From Candidatus Poribacteria bacterium (GTDB lineage Bacteria; Poribacteria; WGA-4E; WGA-3G): a stretch of DNA of 64,000 nucleotides. Of the stretch, positions 444-61,928 are shown piece after piece (position 1 is the first letter of the stretch; each line of letters begins with the position of its first letter). The translations under genes and the position numbers were made by a program. Under the pieces are notes generated by a model. It did no database searches. It was not told where the DNA came from and saw nothing but the letters and a program-made list of their open reading frames with translations. The stretch is from contig JAGFCB010000014.1 of assembly GCA_022394775.1 (NCBI GenBank), positions 7,715-71,714 on the forward strand, read 5' to 3'.

Positions 444-702
444 TTAGGACTTACGCACTTCCTCTCAAAGTCCCCCTGATAAGGGGATTTAGGGGGTTAA
501 ACAACTAAAATCGCTACTTTTTCGGTGGAATATATCGCTTTTGGACACGATCTGCGTAAGTCCTAAATCTCTTAAAATTTAGGACTTACCGATGATGGTC
601 TTTTGTACCACAAACTTCCAGTTTGTGCTATCAGAAATGCTGTATAATCAGAAAAGTTTCATCTAACAAAACCGTCCACAGCCAAAATTGCGTAAGTCCT
701 GA
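444..702. repeat. Two adjacent MITE/REP-like elements bounded by TAGGACTTACGCA / TGCGTAAGTCCTAA inverted repeats. The first (444-566) carries the core CCTCTCAAAGTCCCCCTGATAAGGGGATTTAGGGGGTT; the second (579-702) carries a different core.
   Basis: TIR copies lie at 444-457, 553-566, 579-590 and 689-702. The same TIRs and cores recur at 12750, 22659, 29028, 40403 and 61749. Confidence 0.7.
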
Positions 703-2924: not shown

Positions 2925-4079
2925 ATGGCAAATCAGAACCTCCCAACGTTTACTGTTGATGCTGGCTTCCATGACCGAGACGGATGTCCGGTCAGTGTCA
3001 GTGTTGACCATCCCGACATTAGCCAACTTCACGATCATGCCGTCACATTAACAGATACGGCATCTAATAATACCATCTCAGCACAATGCTTCGCTGACGA
3101 GGATGGCGGCACAACCTTAAATTGGATACTCGATGGACTCGCCGCTGGTGAATCGCGTTCCTATACCCTTTCAGAAGGAGGCGTTGCTGGCGAATCAGGC
3201 GTTCAGCTAAACGAAGAAGCCGAAACTATCGCCGTCACGCTCAATGACCGACACTTTACAACATTTCGCTATGCTAAAACACAATTCCGTCCCTATTTTT
3301 TCCCTGTCCTCGGTCCCGATGGACGCGAAGTAACGCGTGGTGAAACAAGCGAGGTCTCGAAAGACCACGTGCATCACCGTTCCCTCTACGTCGCCTATGG
3401 CGAGGTTAATGACGTGGATCTATGGGGTGAAGGCAGCAATTCCGGAAGAGTTGTGCATCAAAACTTCACACAGAAACAAGGGGGGGCTGTCGTCGGTCGG
3501 ATTTATACACAAAATAATTGGGAGACGCAAGCTGGTGATGTCTTAATGGCAGACAAGCAGAACTTCCGAATCTATAACCTCCCCGAAGACGCTGCGCTTA
3601 TCGACTTAGATCTCAGTTTTATTGCCTCAACTGGCGACGTTCATTTCGGAGATACCAAAGAAGGCGGTATCATGTCAATCCGTGTCCATCCCTCAATGAA
3701 CGCTTCAGATGGCGGAAAGATAGAGAACGCTTTCGGTGGAATCAATGAGGCTGAAACTTGGGGGAAACGGGCAAACTGGTGTGATTATTCGGGTGTAGTT
3801 GATGGAACACCTGTTGGTCTCGCTGTATTCGATCATATCGTCAATCCACGCTATCCGACATATTGGCACGTCCGTAACTACGGGTTAATGGGAAGCAACA
3901 TCTTCGGCGGCGGCACTTTTGAAAAAGACCCTGCTAAAGACGGTTCCTATACACTCAAGCAGGGTGAAGAGATGCACTTCCGGTTCCGTGTCCTGATCCA
4001 TGCAGGCGATGCCACTGTTGGAAAGGTATCACAGAAATACCACGATTTCATCAATCCGCCTGCTGTTGAGGTTTCCTGA
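2925..4079 (+). CDS. Hypothetical protein, possibly PmoA-like (DUF6807) family
   Basis: The ATG at 2925 follows RBS AAAAGGAAA; the ORF-track start at 2892 is a TTG. Contains a DHVHHRSLY motif. This family is commonly adjacent to Gfo/Idh/MocA oxidoreductases, but the family assignment is from memory only. Confidence 0.4.
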   Translation: MANQNLPTFTVDAGFHDRDGCPVSVSVDHPDISQLHDHAVTLTDTASNNTISAQCFADEDGGTTLNWILDGLAAGESRSYTLSEGGVAGESGVQLNEEAETIAVTLNDRHFTTFRYAKTQFRPYFFPVLGPDGREVTRGETSEVSKDHVHHRSLYVAYGEVNDVDLWGEGSNSGRVVHQNFTQKQGGAVVGRIYTQNNWETQAGDVLMADKQNFRIYNLPEDAALIDLDLSFIASTGDVHFGDTKEGGIMSIRVHPSMNASDGGKIENAFGGINEAETWGKRANWCDYSGVVDGTPVGLAVFDHIVNPRYPTYWHVRNYGLMGSNIFGGGTFEKDPAKDGSYTLKQGEEMHFRFRVLIHAGDATVGKVSQKYHDFINPPAVEVS

Positions 4080-8101: not shown

Positions 8102-8180
8102 AGGAATTGTTTCATTAGGATTTACGCAAACTCCTACTACCACACTATCATTATTGGGCTAAGACCCACGGAGGCTAATT

Positions 8181-9035
8181 GTGAATAGCACCACTGTGAG
8201 AATCATGGCGTACTCGGTTTTTATGATAACCTTTTGTCTTGTAGCACCACAAACTTGGGGGCGTGAGGCTGTTCTTCTTGAAGAAGATTTTGAAGGCGTG
8301 AAACTCGAAGCAAGTATAATGGAACAGGTTAAAGATAAAGACGTTTGGTCAGGCACACCGCCTGAAGGTTGGGAAATTACAAACGAGAACCCTAAAGATC
8401 TCGGTATGCCTGAGTGGAGAACTTGGGCGATTGTTGATCTTGAGTGGTGGACACGAACAGCCGAAGACCAGCGGCGTAGTGAGTTCACCGGAGTCCACAA
8501 TGACGGCAAGGGCAAAGGGAACGGAGCCGTTTCTGATCCTGATGAGTGGGACGATTGGGAGGGAAATGGGGATCCTGATGCCCAGAGTCGTTGGAACGGT
8601 CACTTAATTACGCCACCCATTAAAATCAAAGGCGCAGCAGCAAAATCGCTCGTCTTAACATTGGATTCGAGCTGGCGACCTGAAGATACCCAAAATGGTG
8701 AGATCACAGTGAGTTTCGACGGCGATAAGGAAGAACGAATTCTATTCTTCAAGAGCGTCGGGATTGACGCAGGCGCGCATACCCTTGTTACGATTCCTAC
8801 CCTTAAACTAAAAGAGGAAAAAATAAACGATGGGGAACAGATAAACGAAACATTAGAAATCCCGATCGACAACCCCGCAGGTGCAGCGGAGATGACTATT
8901 AGTTTCGGTGTCGTTGACGCACAGAATGATTGGTGGTGGGCGATAGATAATATAAAACTTATAAGCACTGCCTTTGATGTAGAACCGAGAGATAAATTAG
9001 CAGTGAAATGGGGAGAAATGAAGTCCTTACAATAA
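8181..9035 (+). CDS. Hypothetical secreted protein
   Basis: Signal peptide MAYSVFMITFCLVAPQTWG; acidic, D/W-rich segments. Has a GTG start with GGAGG 7 nt upstream. Confidence 0.5.
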   Translation: MNSTTVRIMAYSVFMITFCLVAPQTWGREAVLLEEDFEGVKLEASIMEQVKDKDVWSGTPPEGWEITNENPKDLGMPEWRTWAIVDLEWWTRTAEDQRRSEFTGVHNDGKGKGNGAVSDPDEWDDWEGNGDPDAQSRWNGHLITPPIKIKGAAAKSLVLTLDSSWRPEDTQNGEITVSFDGDKEERILFFKSVGIDAGAHTLVTIPTLKLKEEKINDGEQINETLEIPIDNPAGAAEMTISFGVVDAQNDWWWAIDNIKLISTAFDVEPRDKLAVKWGEMKSLQ

Positions 9036-9152
9036 CCCCCCTCTATCAAATTGTGAGCAACGCAATATCACTTACAATTTCGCAAATATACGCTAAAAGA
9101 GTGATGCGCTTCCCTCAAGTGTATCGCTCTTTTATGCATTGGAGAAAAATTT

Positions 9153-10205
9153 ATGAAAATATTGGTCACAGGTGGCACGGGACGCATCGGGTCGAACCTC
9201 GTTAAAAAATTACTGGAAAAAGGACACGATATCCGAAGTTTCGTTTATCCGGGTGATGTCAACCGTGTTGGAAGATGGGACGGAACTGAACGCGTTGAGA
9301 CCGTCCTCGGCGACTTGCGCGAATATGAAGACGTTAAAAAAGCCGTTGAAGGTGTTGATGCTATCTATCATATCGCCGCTGCTTTCGGGGGGCCCTTTGA
9401 TAACCGCCAGTACTTGGAGATTAATGGTATGGGGACGCTCAACATTTTGGAGGCTGTCCGCGAATCCAATCCGAACCTTCACCGTCTCGTTTATGCCTGT
9501 ACCGAAGCAATCTATTGGGAACTTACTGAGAAGGGCAGATTTTTCGATAAACCGATCACGGAAGATATGGTTGCTAAATACCATCACATGCCTTATTTCC
9601 TTACCAAATGGATCGGTGAGGAATTGTGCATGACCTATCACCACCAATACGGCGTACCTTCCACTGTTTTCCGATTTACTACCGTTATTGAACCGAGCGA
9701 ATTCCTCAATGAAGATGATTTGCCGAAACTGTTTGTCTTTAGTAATATTTACAACCGATACAGCAATTATAAAGGCGATGATCCTGCTGAGTTAGAAACC
9801 GCTGAGACTGTCAAACGTCTCTGGGATGGACAAGAAAAATTTATACTCAAACGCAACCCTAACGGGCGACCTTATAAAGAACATTTCACTGATGTTCGCG
9901 ATATTGTGCAAGGATTGGTTTCCGGGATTGAGAAGGATGCCGCTATCGGCGAAGAATTCACACTCGGAGGGAACGGTGTTTTCAAACACGAAGAGGTTAT
10001 GCCATATCTATCCGAACGCTACCAGATGGATTTTGTTGATGTCCAACTCCCGCAACCTCTCTATTTTGAATTTGATTTGAGCAAAATCAAAACACTATTG
10101 GGCTTTGAACCACAACACGATTTAGCGAGTATCCTTGATGCCGCTGAAGCGATGCGCCGTGGTGAAGATGTCGGCATTATTCCAACAGGCGTTCGGTGGA
10201 ACTAA
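9153..10205 (+). CDS. NAD-dependent epimerase/dehydratase (SDR family)
   Basis: N-terminal Rossmann motif MKILVTGGTGRIGSNLV. RBS GGAGAAAAA. Confidence 0.85.
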   Translation: MKILVTGGTGRIGSNLVKKLLEKGHDIRSFVYPGDVNRVGRWDGTERVETVLGDLREYEDVKKAVEGVDAIYHIAAAFGGPFDNRQYLEINGMGTLNILEAVRESNPNLHRLVYACTEAIYWELTEKGRFFDKPITEDMVAKYHHMPYFLTKWIGEELCMTYHHQYGVPSTVFRFTTVIEPSEFLNEDDLPKLFVFSNIYNRYSNYKGDDPAELETAETVKRLWDGQEKFILKRNPNGRPYKEHFTDVRDIVQGLVSGIEKDAAIGEEFTLGGNGVFKHEEVMPYLSERYQMDFVDVQLPQPLYFEFDLSKIKTLLGFEPQHDLASILDAAEAMRRGEDVGIIPTGVRWN

Positions 10206-12027: not shown

Positions 12028-12750
12028 ATGAACAGACGTAATCTGTTTATTGCTATCTGCAGTGTCACCCTCGGCATCGCAGCTCTTGCGATGTCGCAGA
12101 CCTATTTTGAAGATAATTTTGATGATCCAAAGGAATCTGAGAAGAAGTGGGTCGCCCTCTTTGGAGACTGGGAACTCAAAGGTGATGAATACCATCAACT
12201 CCAAAATTCACCCAACTGCATGAGTGTTGTTGCTGATGAATTCTGGGATGACAAATGGAATGATTATACTTTTGAGGTAAGAGGGAGTAAAATCAGTGGT
12301 GCTGAAGGCTTTTTAATTATGTTCCGATGCCAAGGCTTGATGCAAGCCCGCGGTCAAGCACTCGAAGACCATCCGCCACGTATGGAGAAACTTAAACCTT
12401 CACTGGAGTACTGGTGGAACCTCGGCGGTTGGGGCAACACGCGCTCACAGGTTGAATCGTGGGGTGGTAAAGGTGGTGCCAATAGCAATCACACCATTGA
12501 AGATGATGAGTGGTATAACATCAAGATTGTCAATGAACCGGGCAGCTACACGCTCTTCCTCAACGACGAAAAAGTCGCCAAGGTAGATGATAATACCGAA
12601 GACGGTGTCGGCAGAGTCGGTCTCGCAACTTGGAGCACTGTCGCAAAGTATGACGATGTCATCGTTTACGGACCCGATGGACCCTCGTTACCGGTTGATG
12701 CGAAAAGCAAGCTCGCAACAACTTGGGCATATCTCAAATCCACAAAATAG
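12028..12750 (+). CDS. LamG-like jellyroll / DUF1080 (3-keto-disaccharide hydrolase-like) domain protein, secreted
   Basis: Signal peptide; FEDNFDD...W....GDWELKGDE; C-terminal GRVGLATWSTVAKYDDVIVYG is typical of DUF1080. Confidence 0.5.
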   Translation: MNRRNLFIAICSVTLGIAALAMSQTYFEDNFDDPKESEKKWVALFGDWELKGDEYHQLQNSPNCMSVVADEFWDDKWNDYTFEVRGSKISGAEGFLIMFRCQGLMQARGQALEDHPPRMEKLKPSLEYWWNLGGWGNTRSQVESWGGKGGANSNHTIEDDEWYNIKIVNEPGSYTLFLNDEKVAKVDDNTEDGVGRVGLATWSTVAKYDDVIVYGPDGPSLPVDAKSKLATTWAYLKSTK

Positions 12751-12810
12751 ATAGGACTCTCGTATCTCCTCTTAAAGTCCCCCTGATAAGGGGGATTTAG
12801 GGGGTTAAAG
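12750..12810. repeat. Degenerate copy of the MITE/REP-like core CCTCTTAAAGTCCCCCTGATAAGGGGGATTTAGGGGGTTAAAG
   Basis: Begins at the stop codon TAG-ATAGGACT, as the copy at 29028 does. A 9-bp stem hairpin TAGCGCGAG..CTCGCGCTA follows at 12817-12846. Confidence 0.6.
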
Positions 12811-12850
12811 ATACCGATAGCGCGAGTGACCGTTACCTCGCGCTACCTTT

Positions 12851-22655: not shown

Positions 22656-22658
22656 TAG

Positions 22659-22748
22659 AACTTACGCATCCCCATTGCTGGCGGGGTTTGAAACCCCGCC
22701 AGCAGTGCGTAATACATAGGTTATCGTAGAAAGATGCGTAAGTTCTGG
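22659..22748. repeat. MITE/REP-like element, second core type: degenerate TIRs CTTACGCATCC / GATGCGTAAGTTC around the palindrome CTGGCGGGGTTTGAAACCCCGCCAG
   Basis: Perfect 11-bp stem palindrome at 22677-22701. Same architecture as the element at 61749-61843. Confidence 0.65.
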
Positions 22749-28409: not shown

Positions 28410-29027
28410 ATGGCACATCGCGGTACGTTTATTACATTTGAAGGTGTGGAAGGGGCGGGTAAAACCACACAAGTTCAACGGTTGGCAGCCGCTCTCGGTC
28501 CAGACGTAGTCCTCACCCGTGAACCGGGGGGCACGCCTGTTTCAGAGCGGATCCGCGACATCTTTCTGACATCCGACAGGATAACAACGATGACAGAGTT
28601 GTTGTTGATTGCTGCTGCACGCGCACAACACGTAGACGAGCGTATACGTCCCGCATTGGCAGCAAATCAGATTGTTATCTGTGACAGATTTATTGATGCG
28701 ACCGTGGCGTATCAAGGCTATCGTGGTGGTATTGATCTTGAGATTATCCATCAATTGAATCATATTGCTACGGGCGGTTTGACCCCGGATATCACCTTTA
28801 TCCTTGACCTACCCCCAGAGATCGGTTTGCAACGTCAACAACAAAGCGAGGCACACCGCGACCGTTTGGATAAAGAACCGTTGGAATTCCATCGTAAAGT
28901 TCGTGAGGGATACTTGTCCGTTGTGGAAGCAGAACCGCAGCGCGTTAAACTAATAGACGCAACGCAGTCGCCTGATGCTGTCCACACCGCGATCTTAACC
29001 GAATATCAGGTGCACCTATCAAAATAG
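28410..29027 (+). CDS. tmk: Thymidylate kinase
   Basis: FITFEGVEGAGKTTQ P-loop. RBS AAGAGGAAAA. Confidence 0.9.
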   Translation: MAHRGTFITFEGVEGAGKTTQVQRLAAALGPDVVLTREPGGTPVSERIRDIFLTSDRITTMTELLLIAAARAQHVDERIRPALAANQIVICDRFIDATVAYQGYRGGIDLEIIHQLNHIATGGLTPDITFILDLPPEIGLQRQQQSEAHRDRLDKEPLEFHRKVREGYLSVVEAEPQRVKLIDATQSPDAVHTAILTEYQVHLSK

Positions 29028-29154
29028 ATAGGACTTACGCATTTCCTCTTAAAGTCCCCCTGATAAGGGGCGGTGAATGCCCATAAGGCATTCATACCGT
29101 TGATTCTTTAGGGGGTTTGAAACATTGAAATTACTGCTTTTGCGTAAGTCCTAA
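29028..29154. repeat. MITE/REP-like element with intact TIRs (ATAGGACTTACGCA ... TGCGTAAGTCCTAA) and the core CCCCTGATAAGGGG..TTAGGGGGTT, interrupted by a palindromic insert GTGAATGCCCATAAGGCATTCAT
   Basis: Starts exactly at the tmk stop codon. TIRs at 29028-29041 and 29141-29154. Confidence 0.75.
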
Positions 29155-29178
29155 TAGAAGCACCTCTTGGAAGAAAAA

Positions 29179-30358: not shown

Positions 30359-30387
30359 ATTGACAAACGGATTTCCTCGTGGTATAA
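30359..30387 (+). promoter_or_regulatory. Consensus sigma70-like promoter TTGACA, 17 nt spacer, TATAAT upstream of metG
   Basis: Perfect hexamers with a 17-nt spacer. Confidence 0.55.
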
Positions 30388-30440
30388 TTCTTACCAAATT
30401 AGTCAATACTGCCTGAACTGGAGTCCCGAAAAGGAATATA

Positions 30441-32336
30441 ATGAGCACATTTTACGTCACCACCCCTATCTACTACGTGAATGGCGAACCGCATGCAGGA
30501 CACGCCTATACCACTATCATCGCTGATGTTTTGGCGCGTTATCACCGTATCAAAGGCGATGAGGTGTTCTTCCTGACTGGCGTTGATGAACACGGGGCAA
30601 ACATACATAAAGCCGCTGAGAACGCAGGACTTGCTCCACAAGACTATTGCAATAAAATGGCACCTACGTTTACAAAACTTTGGGAACGGTTGAATATCTC
30701 GCACGACATCTTCATGCGGACAACAAGCGATATGCACAAAAGCGGCGCGGAGAAATTCCTCACCGCCCTCTATGATAGTGGCGATGTCTATAAAGGTTCT
30801 TATGAGGGGCATTATTGCCGACCGTGCGAGCGGTTTGTCCCTGAAAAAGAGTTGACGGACGAAAAGATCTGCCCGATTCATAAATTGCCTTTGGAATGGC
30901 TCGAAGAGGAAAACTACTTCTTTAGACTTTCTAAGTATCAAGATCGCTTACTCACACATTTTCACGAGAATCCCGACTTTGTCTACCCCGCAGCTCGACG
31001 CAATGAACTTTTGAGCGTACTTGATTCCGGATTGGAAGACATAAGCATATCTCGCTCCTCTGTTTCATGGGGAATTTCCTTACCCTTTGATCGCGAGCAT
31101 ATCGTCTATGTCTGGATTGAAGCGTTAATGAACTATATGACAGCACTCGGTTATGAAACCGATGATAAGCAGTACCGTACTTTTTGGCCCGCTGATGTCC
31201 ACATGATGGCAAAGGATATCTCCCGTTTTCACGCGCTGATCTGGCCCGCAATGCTAATGGCTGTTAACTTGCCACTTCCAAAACAGGTTGTTGCGCACGG
31301 TTGGCTGACGAAGGACGGCGAAGCATTGAGCAAAACGCGAGGCATTGCCATTGATATGGACACGGACATTGATACCTACGGATTGGATACATTCCGTTAT
31401 TATCTTCTGCGCGAATTTAGTTTCGGAAACGATGGTGATTATCGTCCTACCCGTTTGCATGCACGCTACAACGCTGATCTCGCGAACGACCTCGGCAATC
31501 TGCTCAATCGCGTCCTCGGTTTACTCAACAAGAACTTTGAGGCAATTCCTCCACCGACAACGCCCGGGGAATTCGACGACGAAATCAAGGAAATGGCACA
31601 GACGACGGTAGATAAATTAGATGCGCATATAAACGCATTCGCGTTTGATGCTGCATTGGAGACTATCTGGGAATTTGTGCGACGCATCAATCGGTATATC
31701 CAACAGACCCAAGTCTGGACGCTCGCGAAGCCAGAGACGAAGCCGAGAATGGGAACGATCCTGTACAATAGTTTAGAAGCACTCCGCGTCATCTCTGTGT
31801 TGATTGCCCCCTTTATTCCGGAAACTGCTCAGAAAATTCAGAAACAGATCGGTTTATCCGAATTTGATACCGCCGCAGAGTGGGGACGCTTACCTGTAGA
31901 TATTGCCGTTAGCAGAGGTGAACCCATCTTCCCGCGGGTTGATACAAAAGATCAGAAACAGGCACGACCTGAAAAAGCAGCGAAGCCGAAGCCGAAGACG
32001 GCAAAGCAAACAACCGACTTAGTCTCCTTCGCGGATTTCCAAAAGTTGGATCTTCGGGTCGCGCGTATTCTCACTGCTGAACCCATTGAAGGTGCGGACC
32101 GACTCCTCAAGTTGCAAGTAGACCTCGGTACTGAGAAACGGCAAGTCGTCGCAGGGATTGCCGAACACTATACCTCTGAAACCCTCGTAGGCAAACAGAT
32201 AATCATCGTCGCGAATCTTGAACCCGCAACTATCCGTGGTGTCGAATCACACGGTATGATTCTCGCAGGCAGCGCGGACGCTGTAGTTTTAGCGACCCTT
32301 GAAACCGAAATGCCCCTCGGCACACAGGTAAGGTAG
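30441..32336 (+). CDS. metG: Methionine--tRNA ligase with C-terminal EMAP/Trbp111-type tRNA-binding domain
   Basis: HIGH region PIYYVNGEPHAGHAY; KMSKS-type ALSKTRG; C-terminal LDLRVARIL...GADRLLKLQVDLG. Confidence 0.95.
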   Translation: MSTFYVTTPIYYVNGEPHAGHAYTTIIADVLARYHRIKGDEVFFLTGVDEHGANIHKAAENAGLAPQDYCNKMAPTFTKLWERLNISHDIFMRTTSDMHKSGAEKFLTALYDSGDVYKGSYEGHYCRPCERFVPEKELTDEKICPIHKLPLEWLEEENYFFRLSKYQDRLLTHFHENPDFVYPAARRNELLSVLDSGLEDISISRSSVSWGISLPFDREHIVYVWIEALMNYMTALGYETDDKQYRTFWPADVHMMAKDISRFHALIWPAMLMAVNLPLPKQVVAHGWLTKDGEALSKTRGIAIDMDTDIDTYGLDTFRYYLLREFSFGNDGDYRPTRLHARYNADLANDLGNLLNRVLGLLNKNFEAIPPPTTPGEFDDEIKEMAQTTVDKLDAHINAFAFDAALETIWEFVRRINRYIQQTQVWTLAKPETKPRMGTILYNSLEALRVISVLIAPFIPETAQKIQKQIGLSEFDTAAEWGRLPVDIAVSRGEPIFPRVDTKDQKQARPEKAAKPKPKTAKQTTDLVSFADFQKLDLRVARILTAEPIEGADRLLKLQVDLGTEKRQVVAGIAEHYTSETLVGKQIIIVANLEPATIRGVESHGMILAGSADAVVLATLETEMPLGTQVR

Positions 32337-36301: not shown

Positions 36302-36399
36302 TAAAATGTAAATATAATTTAGCACGCCCTGAAACTTCATAAAACGGGGTGCGTAATTAACATTTAAATAGATTACCAAAAAAGCGTTGAAAGGGAGGA

Positions 36400-36706
36400 G
36401 TAAGTCGTCCGGGCTTGCGAGAGATGGAAACTCACCGGCTGAAAGGTTTCCTCAAGTTCCCTCGACTGAAGGTCGCCCTGGAGCTGCTAATCTGAACAAT
36501 TGTAGGTGCGAGTTTCGCTCGCGACAGGTAGGATTGGTCGGTGTGATGCCCGTTATCGCATCCCAAAGAGTGCTCTTTCTCATTGTAGGCGGGCTTTGTA
36601 AGCCCGATACCTCCAATAAAAATGGGAAGAGAATTGGAGTGGTACCACGGTAAGGCAAGTGTAATGCCCTTCTCGTCTCCATGTTTGGAACGAGAAGGTT
36701 TTTTTA
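36400..36706 (+). ncRNA. T-box riboswitch leader with intrinsic terminator, upstream of ilvB
   Basis: T-box sequence AATTGGAGTGGTACCACGG at 36632-36650 (consensus AAUUAGGGUGGUACCGCG). F-box CCGTTA at 36549-36554. GA-rich GCGAGAGATGG near the 5' end. Terminator CCTTCTCGT..ACGAGAAGG plus T7 at 36668-36705. Confidence 0.75.
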
Positions 36707-36890: not shown

Positions 36891-38567
36891 ATGGAACTTT
36901 CAGGAGCACAAATCCTGGTTGATGGTCTCAAGCGGGAAGGTGTCGAATATATCTTCGGTGTCAACGGTGGCGCAGCGATGCCGATTTTCGATGCTCTGTA
37001 CGGCGAGACCGAAGTTAAATTAATTCCGATGCGGCATGAACAAGGGGCTTCCCACGCCGCTGATGGCTACGCGCGCGCCACAGGGAAAGTCGGCGTTGCA
37101 CTCGCAACCTCCGGTCCCGGCGCGACCAACCTCGTCACTGGTATCGCTACTGCCTATATGGATTCTATTCCGATGGTCGCGATTACTGGACAGGTTTTTA
37201 CTCACTATATTGGCAGTGATGCATTCCAAGAATGTGATGTTATTGGCGTAACGCGTCCGATTTGTAAGCACAGTTACCTCATTAAAAGCAGTGACGAAAT
37301 CGCGGATGTTGTCGCTGAAGCGTTTCACATCGCAAAAACTGGGAAACCGGGACCTGTTATCATTGATATCGCCAAAGATGCCCAGAACAATGAAGCACTG
37401 TTTCAGTATCCAGAAACGGTTGACATCCGCAGCTACAAACCCCAAGTTCATGGCGACCCAGGACAAATTGCAAAGGCAGCGGCACTAATTAAAGAAGCCA
37501 AACGTCCCATGCTTTATGCCGGTGGCGGTGTTGTCCTTGCGAATGCCAGCGAAGAACTACGGCAGCTGACTTTGAATACACAAATCCCGATTACTGTCAC
37601 TCTGATGGGGCTTGGTGCGTTCCCTGAGACGCATCCGTTGGCGATGGAGATGCCCGGTATGCACGGCTCTTGTTGCGCAAATTACGCCTTCACCGATTCA
37701 GACCTTGTTATCGCTGTGGGTTCGAGATTCGACGACCGCGTTACAGGTGATCTCAGTAAATTCGCACCTAACGCCAAAAAGATCCACATTGATATTGATG
37801 CGTCTTGTATCGGGAAAAATGTCCCTGTAGATGTCCCCATCGTCGGCGATGCGAAAAGCGTCCTAACGGAGCTCAACAAACAGGTGAGCACTGCGGATAT
37901 CGACCCATGGCGCGCTCAAATTCAGGAGTGGAAACAGAAATATCCGTTTGAATACGAGCAAAAATCGGATGTTGTTATGCCGCAATACGTTATTGAGAAA
38001 ATATATGAGCATTACAGTGATGCCATTGTTGTTGCGGATGTCGGGCAGCACCAGATGTGGGCGGCGCAATACTTCAAATTTACTGAACCTCGACAGTGGC
38101 TCAATTCTGGCGGTCTCGGCACGATGGGCTTTAGCCTCCCTGCCGCAATTGGTGCACAACTCGGATGCCCGGACAAAACCGTCGTCAACATCAACGGGGA
38201 CGGCTCCTATATCATGACGATCCAAGAACTGGTGCCAGCAGTTACGATGAAGCTGCCACTTAAGGTCTTTATCATCAACAATATGTACTTAGGGATGGTG
38301 CGTCAATGGCAGGAACTGTTCCACGGCAAACGCTACTCCGCTGTTGATTATCACGACAACCCTGATTTCGCCTTGCTCGCGCAAGCATTCGGTGCCACAG
38401 GTTTGCGGGTCGAACACCCCGACGACGTTGAACCGGCATTGCAGAAGGCAAAAGGGATTACCGACGGTCCTGTCGTCATTGACTTCATTGTTGATGAAGA
38501 GGAGAACGTGTTCCCAATGGTACCAGCAGGTGCCGGACTTGGAGATGTTATCCGCGGGTTATCTTAA
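36891..38567 (+). CDS. ilvB: Acetolactate synthase large subunit (biosynthetic)
   Basis: TPP-binding GDGSYIM...NN motif; FAD-binding core. Confidence 0.95.
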   Translation: MELSGAQILVDGLKREGVEYIFGVNGGAAMPIFDALYGETEVKLIPMRHEQGASHAADGYARATGKVGVALATSGPGATNLVTGIATAYMDSIPMVAITGQVFTHYIGSDAFQECDVIGVTRPICKHSYLIKSSDEIADVVAEAFHIAKTGKPGPVIIDIAKDAQNNEALFQYPETVDIRSYKPQVHGDPGQIAKAAALIKEAKRPMLYAGGGVVLANASEELRQLTLNTQIPITVTLMGLGAFPETHPLAMEMPGMHGSCCANYAFTDSDLVIAVGSRFDDRVTGDLSKFAPNAKKIHIDIDASCIGKNVPVDVPIVGDAKSVLTELNKQVSTADIDPWRAQIQEWKQKYPFEYEQKSDVVMPQYVIEKIYEHYSDAIVVADVGQHQMWAAQYFKFTEPRQWLNSGGLGTMGFSLPAAIGAQLGCPDKTVVNINGDGSYIMTIQELVPAVTMKLPLKVFIINNMYLGMVRQWQELFHGKRYSAVDYHDNPDFALLAQAFGATGLRVEHPDDVEPALQKAKGITDGPVVIDFIVDEEENVFPMVPAGAGLGDVIRGLS

Positions 38568-40402: not shown

Positions 40403-40492
40403 TTGCGATGTACGCATCTGCCCCCTTGATAAGGGGGATAAAGGGGAGTTGCGGTGTACGCATCTGCCCCCTTGATAAGGGGGGATAAAGGG
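40403..40492. repeat. Tandem 2-copy, roughly 45-bp repeat TTGCG(A/G)TGTACGCATCTGCCCCCTTGATAAGGGGG(G)ATAAAGGGG, related to the MITE core family
   Basis: Shares ACGCAT...CCCC(C)TGATAAGGGG..A(A/T)AGGGG with the elements at 461-500, 12770-12810 and 29045-29120. Confidence 0.7.
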
Positions 40493-40496
40493 GGTT

Positions 40497-61715: not shown

Positions 61716-61746
61716 AAGTAGTAGGCACGCGCCGCGTGCCGTAAAC
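61716..61746 (+). repeat. Stop-codon-associated palindromic element AAGTAGTAG-GCACGCGCCGCGTGCC-GTAAAC
   Basis: Perfect 8-bp palindrome GGCACGCG/CGCGTGCC immediately after the alsS-like stop. Third member of the 32334 family. Confidence 0.6.
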
Positions 61747-61748
61747 AT

Positions 61749-61843
61749 CTTAGGACTTACGCGTTTTTCTATGATAATCTACATATTATGTCCTGCTGGC
61801 TGGGTTTGAAACCCCGCCAGCGCGGAGGGCTGCGTAAGTCCTA
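61749..61843. repeat. MITE/REP-like element with TIRs TTAGGACTTACGCG / GCGTAAGTCCTAC and palindromic core CTGGCTGGGTTTGAAACCCCGCCAG
   Basis: Same TIR as 444 and 29028; same core as 22677. Confidence 0.75.
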
Positions 61844-61928
61844 CATCTTTCAGACGCTAATCGTGGTTTTAGTCTATTTGTTTTCGGAGATGCTTCGTTT
61901 TTTCTAAAGGAGGACCCTCTACCCAAAA

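Follow-up and report, generated by a model that had tools for sequence, protein, structure and literature searches.

What are the short, palindrome-rich repeats that recur between the genes of this DNA, and how did they come to lie there? We addressed this question in a stretch of 64,000 nucleotides from a Candidatus Poribacteria bacterium (assembly GCA_022394775.1, contig JAGFCB010000014.1, positions 7,715 to 71,714; hereafter the window), in which a first-pass annotation had described a novel family of non-autonomous mobile elements, or of elements like the repetitive extragenic palindromes (REPs), at seven or more loci beginning with a pair at 444–702. The repeats are very probably (roughly 93%) MITEs (miniature inverted-repeat transposable elements) that carry the 13-bp ends of the ISAba11 type and are mobilised in trans by an IS701-family transposase of the ISAba11 group. 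We identify them as MITEs because of their small size (under about 600 bp, with no room for a transposase gene), their terminal inverted repeats (TIRs), a fixed 5-bp target-site duplication, dispersed copies, a matching autonomous insertion sequence (IS), and sites that are filled in one genome and empty in another. Judging by the IlvD protein encoded in the window, which is 94–96% identical to every organism-named match among the best 120 (all named Candidatus Poribacteria; top match 98%), the host belongs to the Poribacteria.

Ends of the elements and their target-site duplications

A 13-bp TIR, YAGGACTTACGCA, is conserved at both ends of five copies. When both strands of the window were searched for TAGGACTTACGCA with up to two mismatches, 11 matches were obtained against 1.08 expected, a number that none of 100 dinucleotide-preserving shuffles reached. 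These matches pair into five inverted pairs (445–565, 580–701, 22656–22747, 29029–29153, and 61751–61843), and the five intact elements, together with two or three decayed ones, make up seven or eight loci in 64 kb; across the family the elements are 92–125 bp long and non-coding. The first-pass annotation had placed the loci correctly to within 1 bp and had given the inverted repeats 13–14 bp, of which the 13 bp stand; the fourteenth matching base of copy 445–565 lies outside the TIR and is part of the flanking duplication. The loci are as follows (strand given where one was assigned; L numbers are our handles for comparison loci).

445–565: intact MITE, subfamily A, 121 bp; perfect 13-bp TIRs TAGGACTTACGCA/TGCGTAAGTCCTA; core A, CCCCCTGATAAGGGGATTTAGGGGG, adjoins the left TIR; perfect duplication AATCT (440–444, 566–570); RNA fold −43.2 kcal/mol, z −4.5.
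580–701: intact MITE, subfamily C, 122 bp; left TIR TAGGACTTACCGA (2 mismatches), right TIR TGCGTAAGTCCTG; internal hairpin ACAAACTTCCAGTTTGT; perfect duplication AAATT (575–579, 702–706); fold z −4.8; homologues in Poribacteria loci L032, L109, L063, and L111 at 72–82% identity.
8116–8128, plus strand: solo TIR-like site TAGGATTTACGCA, bordering a lineage-specific insertion of about 1 kb (8106–9153) on its left side.
12751–12818, plus strand: truncated and decayed subfamily-A copy, 88% identical to 445–501; left TIR degraded to TAGGACTCTCGTA, core A intact, without a right TIR.
22656–22747, minus strand: MITE, subfamily B, 92 bp, inverted relative to copy 61751; TIRs TAGAACTTACGCA/TGCGTAAGTTCTG; the core is a perfect hairpin, CTGGCGGGGTTTGAAACCCCGCCAG; left duplication TGTAA kept, right one decayed; fold −51.8 kcal/mol, z −9.7.
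29029–29153: intact MITE, variant of subfamily A, 125 bp, between tmk and holB; palindromic insert of about 36 bp (29071–29106) within core A; perfect duplication ATAGA (29024–29028, 29154–29158), which contains the TAG stop of tmk; fold z −7.3.
40403–40493, plus strand: tandem duplication (46 bp, 2.0 units) of a core-A-like module, ACGCATCTGCCCCCTTGATAAGGGGGATAAAGGGG, without the TAGGAC termini.
61751–61843, plus strand: intact MITE, subfamily B, 93 bp; TIRs TAGGACTTACGCG/TGCGTAAGTCCTA; perfect duplication CATCT (61746–61750, 61844–61848); fold z −6.3.

Immediately outside the TIRs, perfect 5-bp direct repeats (AATCT, AAATT, ATAGA, and CATCT) flank four of the five intact window copies, so that the search for target-site duplications suggested by the first-pass annotation gave a positive answer. 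The neighbouring elements 445–565 and 580–701, which had been taken for a pair sharing TIRs, lie 14 bp apart and each possess their own TIR pair and their own 5-bp duplication; they are two independent insertions.

The suggested search for recurrence of the TIR was likewise productive: a scan of genomes (one genome per species) with TTAGGACTTACGCA matched at least 119 stretches of DNA, which belong to many cyanobacteria, many Candidatus Poribacteria, Chloroflexi, relatives of Beggiatoa, Legionella, and two metagenome-assembled genomes (MAGs) of methanogens. Among the matches listed plus the window, to which all counts of same-TIR elements below refer, we found 88 inverted TIR pairs with the two ends 70–370 bp apart. 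A perfect 5-bp duplication was present in 48 of the 87 testable pairs, against about 0.1 expected by chance, and the signal is limited to offset 1 and length 5, other combinations of offset and length giving 0–7 (apart from one, in which the three central bases of that 5-bp repeat are read). The duplicated targets have mostly A or T at all five positions. In a literature search with both orientations, the TIR string was reported for ISPlag1 only (PMC2464740), and no paper was found that covers both Poribacteria and miniature inverted-repeat elements.

Two of the same-TIR elements lie in archaeal MAGs, one in Methanosarcina (L097 678–794) with a perfect AGATA duplication and one in Methanotrichaceae (L030 2155–2271), suggesting either spread of this transposon end across domains or contamination of the bins.

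Among the degenerate loci, no right TIR was found for the solo site at 8116–8128; it may be a decayed end, and its membership in the family is uncertain. The insertion at 8106–9153 is seen in comparison to L215 and L216, in which the genes for gamma-glutamyltranspeptidase and an epimerase abut. A 284-aa open reading frame (ORF) within it (8181–9035) has no Pfam match, and a reading of the solo site as the end of a decayed full-length IS is unsupported, as the adjacent ORF is without similarity to transposases. The tandem locus 40403–40493 is a rearranged remnant, whose core variant GATAAAGGGGG also occurs in the L110 copy. Tandem partial duplications of MITEs were observed in three unrelated genomes (window 40403–40493, L072 4854–5072, and L112 106–519).

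The partner insertion sequence and the evidence for mobility

A related ORF adjoins the TIR in two of the loci, and it encodes an IS701-family transposase (NCBIfam NF049921, E = 6e-104); the model matches that follow concern the partner IS of other Poribacteria genomes. The protein P0001 scores 370 bits against this model ('IS701 family transposase', cut-off 250) and also matches Pfam DDE_Tnp_1 and DDE_5; a protein search with the transposase returned more than 7,000 relatives, typically of 337 aa. The Poribacteria IS is 1092 bp long, has TAGGACTTACGCA at both ends, and encodes one transposase of 337 aa (P0010/P0001). Six copies with perfect 5-bp duplications (CTAAG, TTCAA, ATTCT, TTTTA, AGAGC, and TAATA) are found in L124 and L126–L130, and one copy is located on the Poribacteria chromosome OZ240248.1. 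The two ends of this IS have only the 13 bp in common. Its transposase stop, TAA, lies within the right TIR TGCGTAAGTCCTA (L120 2500–2520; L064 940–964), making the element very compact. The autonomous element with matching TIRs for which the first-pass annotation had suggested a search thus exists in other Poribacteria, in the IS701/ISAba11 group and not among the IS630-like or IS200-like elements named there as examples.

Among the closest known counterparts is ISAba11 (L212), found by tblastn of plasmids, which is 1101 bp long, has identical 13-bp ends, TAGGACTTACGCA, and is flanked by the duplication CATAT. The same end is present in ISAba11, in an Acinetobacter relative (L211), in Nodularia (L213), in the Poribacteria IS, and in the window MITEs, so the family cannot be called novel in its termini, which are exactly those of the known ISAba11 group. 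Against NF049921 the transposase of ISAba11 reaches 394 bits, and all transposases compared exceed the cut-off of the model. ISAba11 typically gives a 5-bp direct repeat, as Rieck et al. reportedly found in 2012, and the transposases of its group are said in the same work to bear an HHEK signature. ISAba11 thus resembles the window elements in its TIR, 5-bp duplication, and AT-rich targets, and the Poribacteria IS is of similar size (1092 vs. 1101 bp); it differs in being autonomous, the window elements coding for no protein, and in residing in another host phylum. Between the transposases of the Poribacteria IS and of ISAba11 the identity is only 29%, and at the first position of the IS4-type motif R-x3-E-x6-K a pairwise alignment places R in the Poribacteria protein (RWKIEQLHRESK) where ISAba11 has H (HWKIEQYHRVIK), so that the Poribacteria transposase may represent a sister clade marked by R-E-K. 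The transposase stop of ISAba11 is 16 bp before the end of the element, in contrast to the stop inside the right TIR of the Poribacteria IS. Published work describes 13-bp inverted repeats and de novo transposition of ISAba11, with one case of a 6-bp duplication (PMC7519801), and an AT-rich consensus at its insertion sites (PMC8532902).

The Planktothrix IS (1306 bp), which is ISPlag1, carries the terminal variant CAGGACTTACGCA, and the protein of an ISPlag1 copy on a Planktothrix plasmid is 51% identical to the Poribacteria transposase. ISPlag1 has been described with the TIR CAGGACTTACGCAAGC... and a 337-aa transposase of the IS701 group (PMC2464740), and it has in common with the present system the terminal sequence, the size of the transposase, and short non-coding derivatives bounded by TIRs. 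It differs in its longer TIRs (29 bp) and in that its derivatives are remnants of the IS itself, linked to mcy deletions (Christiansen et al., 2008; PMC2464740), while those in the window belong to amplified subfamilies whose interiors are related to no IS.

Nezha of Anabaena and Nostoc (Zhou et al., 2008) is a MITE of about 130–170 bp that shares TIRs with an IS, folds stably, and shows filled and empty sites that attest recent mobility (PMC3184786). It was rejected as the family of the window elements, being tied to ISNpu3 and flanked by a 10-bp direct repeat, CATTATCTAC (PMC6042816), vs. the 5-bp duplications and ISAba11-type ends here; the two were told apart by the length of the direct repeat. 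Correia, ERIC, and RUP are similarly intergenic TIR elements of 100–160 bp with long RNA hairpins and many copies (PMC3184786), but they have other TIRs and partner IS families, and RNA-level effects have been demonstrated for some of them.

Filled and empty sites were compared in syntenic contigs of about 86% nucleotide identity, with exact empty sites at 29029 and 22656; for the locus 445–701, the DNA around P0124 covered 72 bp upstream of the sulfatase gene and yielded no empty site. Between tmk and holB, L218 reads atcaaaATAGAacacctctt, with a single ATAGA and no element, at the place of ATAGA-MITE-ATAGA in the window; the empty site is exact, with one ATAGA or GTAGA, in L218, L221, and L223, and the tmk-holB spacers of related genomes measure 18–22 bp and hold no element. 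Upstream of ilvD, L220 is empty with a single TGTAA (acaaTGTAActgtgatt), while the window and L218 carry a MITE; the orthologous subfamily-B element of L218 (9791–9903) is flanked by TCTAA/TGTAA, and 22656 is an older insertion, its right-hand repeat having decayed in the window. The reciprocal case also occurs, L218 bearing a B-like element (3274–3367) at a site where the window is empty. The elements were therefore mobile, as judged from the empty sites in relatives, and the proposal of a non-autonomous mobile family with defined boundaries is borne out by TIRs, 5-bp duplications, a matching IS, and empty sites alike. In the more distant relatives L131, L215, and L216 (72–80% nucleotide identity), which are too diverged for exact empty sites, about 21 kb of each contained no TIR; L131 is without the 12751 remnant in its orthologous spacer and retains the hairpin downstream of it.

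That hairpin, GCGCGAG...CTCGCGC (12821–12845), is not part of a MITE and follows the stop of the DUF1080 gene; since it is conserved in L131, it predates the MITE remnant. A second non-MITE, GC-rich hairpin, GGCACGCGCCGCGTGCC (61724–61740), lies just after the stop of a TPP-enzyme gene. The spacer between the DUF711 and sulfatase genes is a hot spot for insertions: two MITEs lie there in the window, an IS605-type element (Y1_Tnp plus OrfB/TnpB) in L216 (8087–9740), and a leucine-rich-repeat gene in L215 (6688–8562).

With these observations in hand, we infer the following route. The DDE transposase would be provided in trans by a full-length partner IS located at another site of the genome; the transposase would bind both 13-bp TIRs and move the element to an AT-rich 5-bp target, where staggered cuts and their repair would produce the 5-bp target-site duplication. 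The subfamilies, which number at least three (A, B, and C) and are unrelated in their interiors, would all have spread by this same route, and some copies would later have decayed (12751) or undergone tandem duplication (40403).

Interiors, placement, and rival explanations

The first-pass annotation had distinguished two interchangeable cores. BLAST comparison of the interiors returned three unrelated groups instead, A, B, and C, which have only their ends in common and are separate subfamilies, at least three in number. Group A consists of 445–565, 29029–29153, and the truncated 12751–12818, with the tandem 40403–40493 more distantly related; group B of 22656–22747 and 61751–61843, a pair with 80% identity from end to end that lies in opposite orientations; and group C of 580–701. 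A palindrome is found inside each interior. Core A, CCCCCTGATAAGGGG, occurs at 472, 12779, 29056, 40422, and 40468 (6 matches vs. 0.04 expected), and core B, GGGTTTGAAACCCCGCCAG, at 22678–22702 and 61796–61820, far above chance. Among the matches listed, subfamilies A and C match Poribacteria loci only, at 72–97% identity, and the window subfamilies are present in at least 10 loci of other Poribacteria assemblies.

Core A is nearly invariant over 11 copies from several genomes, while variation is seen in its spacer and in the element's right half. In core B, one compensatory change of G-C to A-T keeps the stem (the L218 copy at 3274). Cores have taken up small extra palindromes at least twice: the palindromic insert 29071–29106 of the window is also present in the copy of another Poribacteria genome (L013 2480–2610), which has a further 26-bp insert flanked by ATACC/ATACC. 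In addition, the core-B hairpin of the L218 copy at 9791–9903 is split by a 21-bp piece. Given its presence in L013, the insert 29071–29106 is a trait of the subfamily and not, as had been suggested, a sign of current activity in this genome. Elhai et al. reportedly proposed small mobile palindromes in 2008 for the small dispersed repeats of cyanobacteria. That the interiors are more than passengers, either as cis-acting hairpins that mobilisation needs or that the host has exapted or as targets for a second layer of tiny mobile palindromes that insert into MITEs, seems to us unlikely, if worth keeping in mind; host exaptation, if it has taken place, may concern the processing of RNA, or the binding of proteins, within operons of which tmk-holB is an example.

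The window is 91% coding, and all 719 bp of elements fall within the remaining 9%, amounting to about 13% of the intergenic DNA. This placement is accounted for by selection against insertions in genes together with AT-rich 5-mers that are two- to three-fold richer in the spacers. It had been claimed that every copy sits immediately 3′ of a stop codon; a stop is abutted (gap 0–1 nt) at three loci only, the others lying 14–240 nt downstream of one, and a long ORF ends in the duplication or TIR in 9 of the 88 same-TIR elements, on which count stop-codon targeting was rejected as a general property. The two elements said to begin exactly at TAG stops (those of tmk and the DUF1080 gene) do not supply them: the stops lie in the duplicated target ATAGA and predate the insertions, the tmk stop being present within ATAGA in the empty L218 site.

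These positions invite the view that the MITEs were exapted, with their hairpins acting on RNA as terminators, processing sites, or 3′-end stabilisers as reported for REP, ERIC, and Correia elements. Exaptation would account for the positions after stops and for the conservation of the palindromic cores (core A near-invariant in 11 copies, core B with its compensatory change), all copies lie between co-directional genes, and the predicted folds are very stable (−33 to −52 kcal/mol, z −4.5 to −9.7). Yet such folds are expected from 13-bp inverted ends plus a palindrome, and most of the energy comes from TIR pairing, which is common to any MITE; the window has 47 hairpin-plus-T-run sites, and not one of them overlaps an element; the two subfamily-B copies face opposite ways with respect to the gene upstream; relatives with tmk-holB spacers of 18–22 bp do without an element, which is thus dispensable there; and the figure of 9 in 88 speaks against a general link with stops. 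Rfam gave no match at any element. We therefore see no sign of terminator action, which the first-pass annotation had favoured, and regard exaptation on RNA as distinctly improbable, an RNA-level or cis-acting role of the interiors being possible. The sole Rfam match in the window is a T-box leader elsewhere (36378–36683, plus strand; RF00230, 95.8 bits, gathering threshold 93), upstream of the ORF 36891–38567. At 30360–30388 on the plus strand, just 5′ of the ORF 30441–32336, the sigma-70 consensus is matched perfectly (12/12; TTGACA and TATAAT spaced by 17 nt, a TG preceding the latter).

REP elements are stand-alone palindromes of 20–40 bp that lack TIRs, leave their targets unduplicated, and rely on a Y1 transposase. 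If the repeats were extragenic palindromes of the REP type, they would owe their spread to a RAYT transposase (IS200/IS605-type Y1) and not to a DDE enzyme. This alternative draws on the GC-rich palindromes of 16–25 bp in the intergenic interiors, a likeness to the short GC-rich extragenic palindromes of REP/RAYT systems, and on the IS605-type element in the orthologous spacer of L216. We consider it extremely unlikely, since 13-bp TIRs and 5-bp duplications are marks of DDE transposition absent from REPs, and in the window and the loci examined cores A and B occur only inside elements or their remnants; the cores also do not carry the GTAG or CGTC head of the two REP super-families (PMC3733652). 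Nor is it at all likely that each copy arose independently by internal deletion of a local full-length IS. ISPlag1 does leave TIR-bounded remnants of 197 bp in Planktothrix (PMC2464740), and some MITEs at cyanobacterial loci share 20–35 bp of subterminal sequence with the local IS, but beyond the 13-bp TIR the window interiors resemble none of the six full-length ISs compared, and the same interiors turn up at more than one locus and in more than one genome, which implies that the short form itself was copied as an amplifying MITE lineage. As to locally duplicated intergenic sequence or recombination scars without mobility of their own, the tandem duplication at 40403–40493 would fit, as would the 9-mer caaaataga, including the TAG stop, that is common to the left flanks of the 12751 remnant (12741–12751) and the 29029 copy (29020–29028); this 9-mer may reflect chance, an extended target preference, or a recombination origin of one of the loci. 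Defined boundaries with duplications, the TIR in at least 119 stretches from several phyla, and the exact empty sites already refute that explanation and leave it next to no probability.

Several points also weigh against the identification as MITEs moved by an ISAba11-group transposase. A tblastn search of the 64-kb window found no gene for a transposase of this family, and we infer an active partner IS in the source genome from its occurrence in other Poribacteria. With the six full-length ISs compared, the window MITEs share nothing beyond the 13-bp ends, so that the sufficiency of 13 bp for mobilisation is an assumption, in favour of which it can be said that the IS's own ends share only 13 bp. 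Window copies are 80–95% identical to each other and not near-identical, a degree of divergence that would lend no support to a current burst. Pure neutral decay, finally, does not explain the near-invariance of core A, whose copies come from seven genomes, or the compensatory change in core B.

Significance for Poribacteria genomes and for the ISAba11 group

The repeats are an ordinary kind of selfish DNA in the spacers of a sponge-symbiont genome, and they reveal no new mechanism; the three MITE subfamilies are new, and the ISAba11/IS701 type of end was already known. Their recognition gives a firm annotation to about 13% of the intergenic DNA of the window and helps in calling genes, predicting operons, and assembling the genomes of Poribacteria, while the filled and empty sites are ready strain-level markers for sponge-symbiont populations. 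For the family, one 13-bp end is conserved over ISAba11 of Acinetobacter, cyanobacteria, Chloroflexi, Poribacteria, and methanogen MAGs, despite the 29% identity between the transposases of ISAba11 and the Poribacteria IS, and this end has seeded many unrelated MITE subfamilies.

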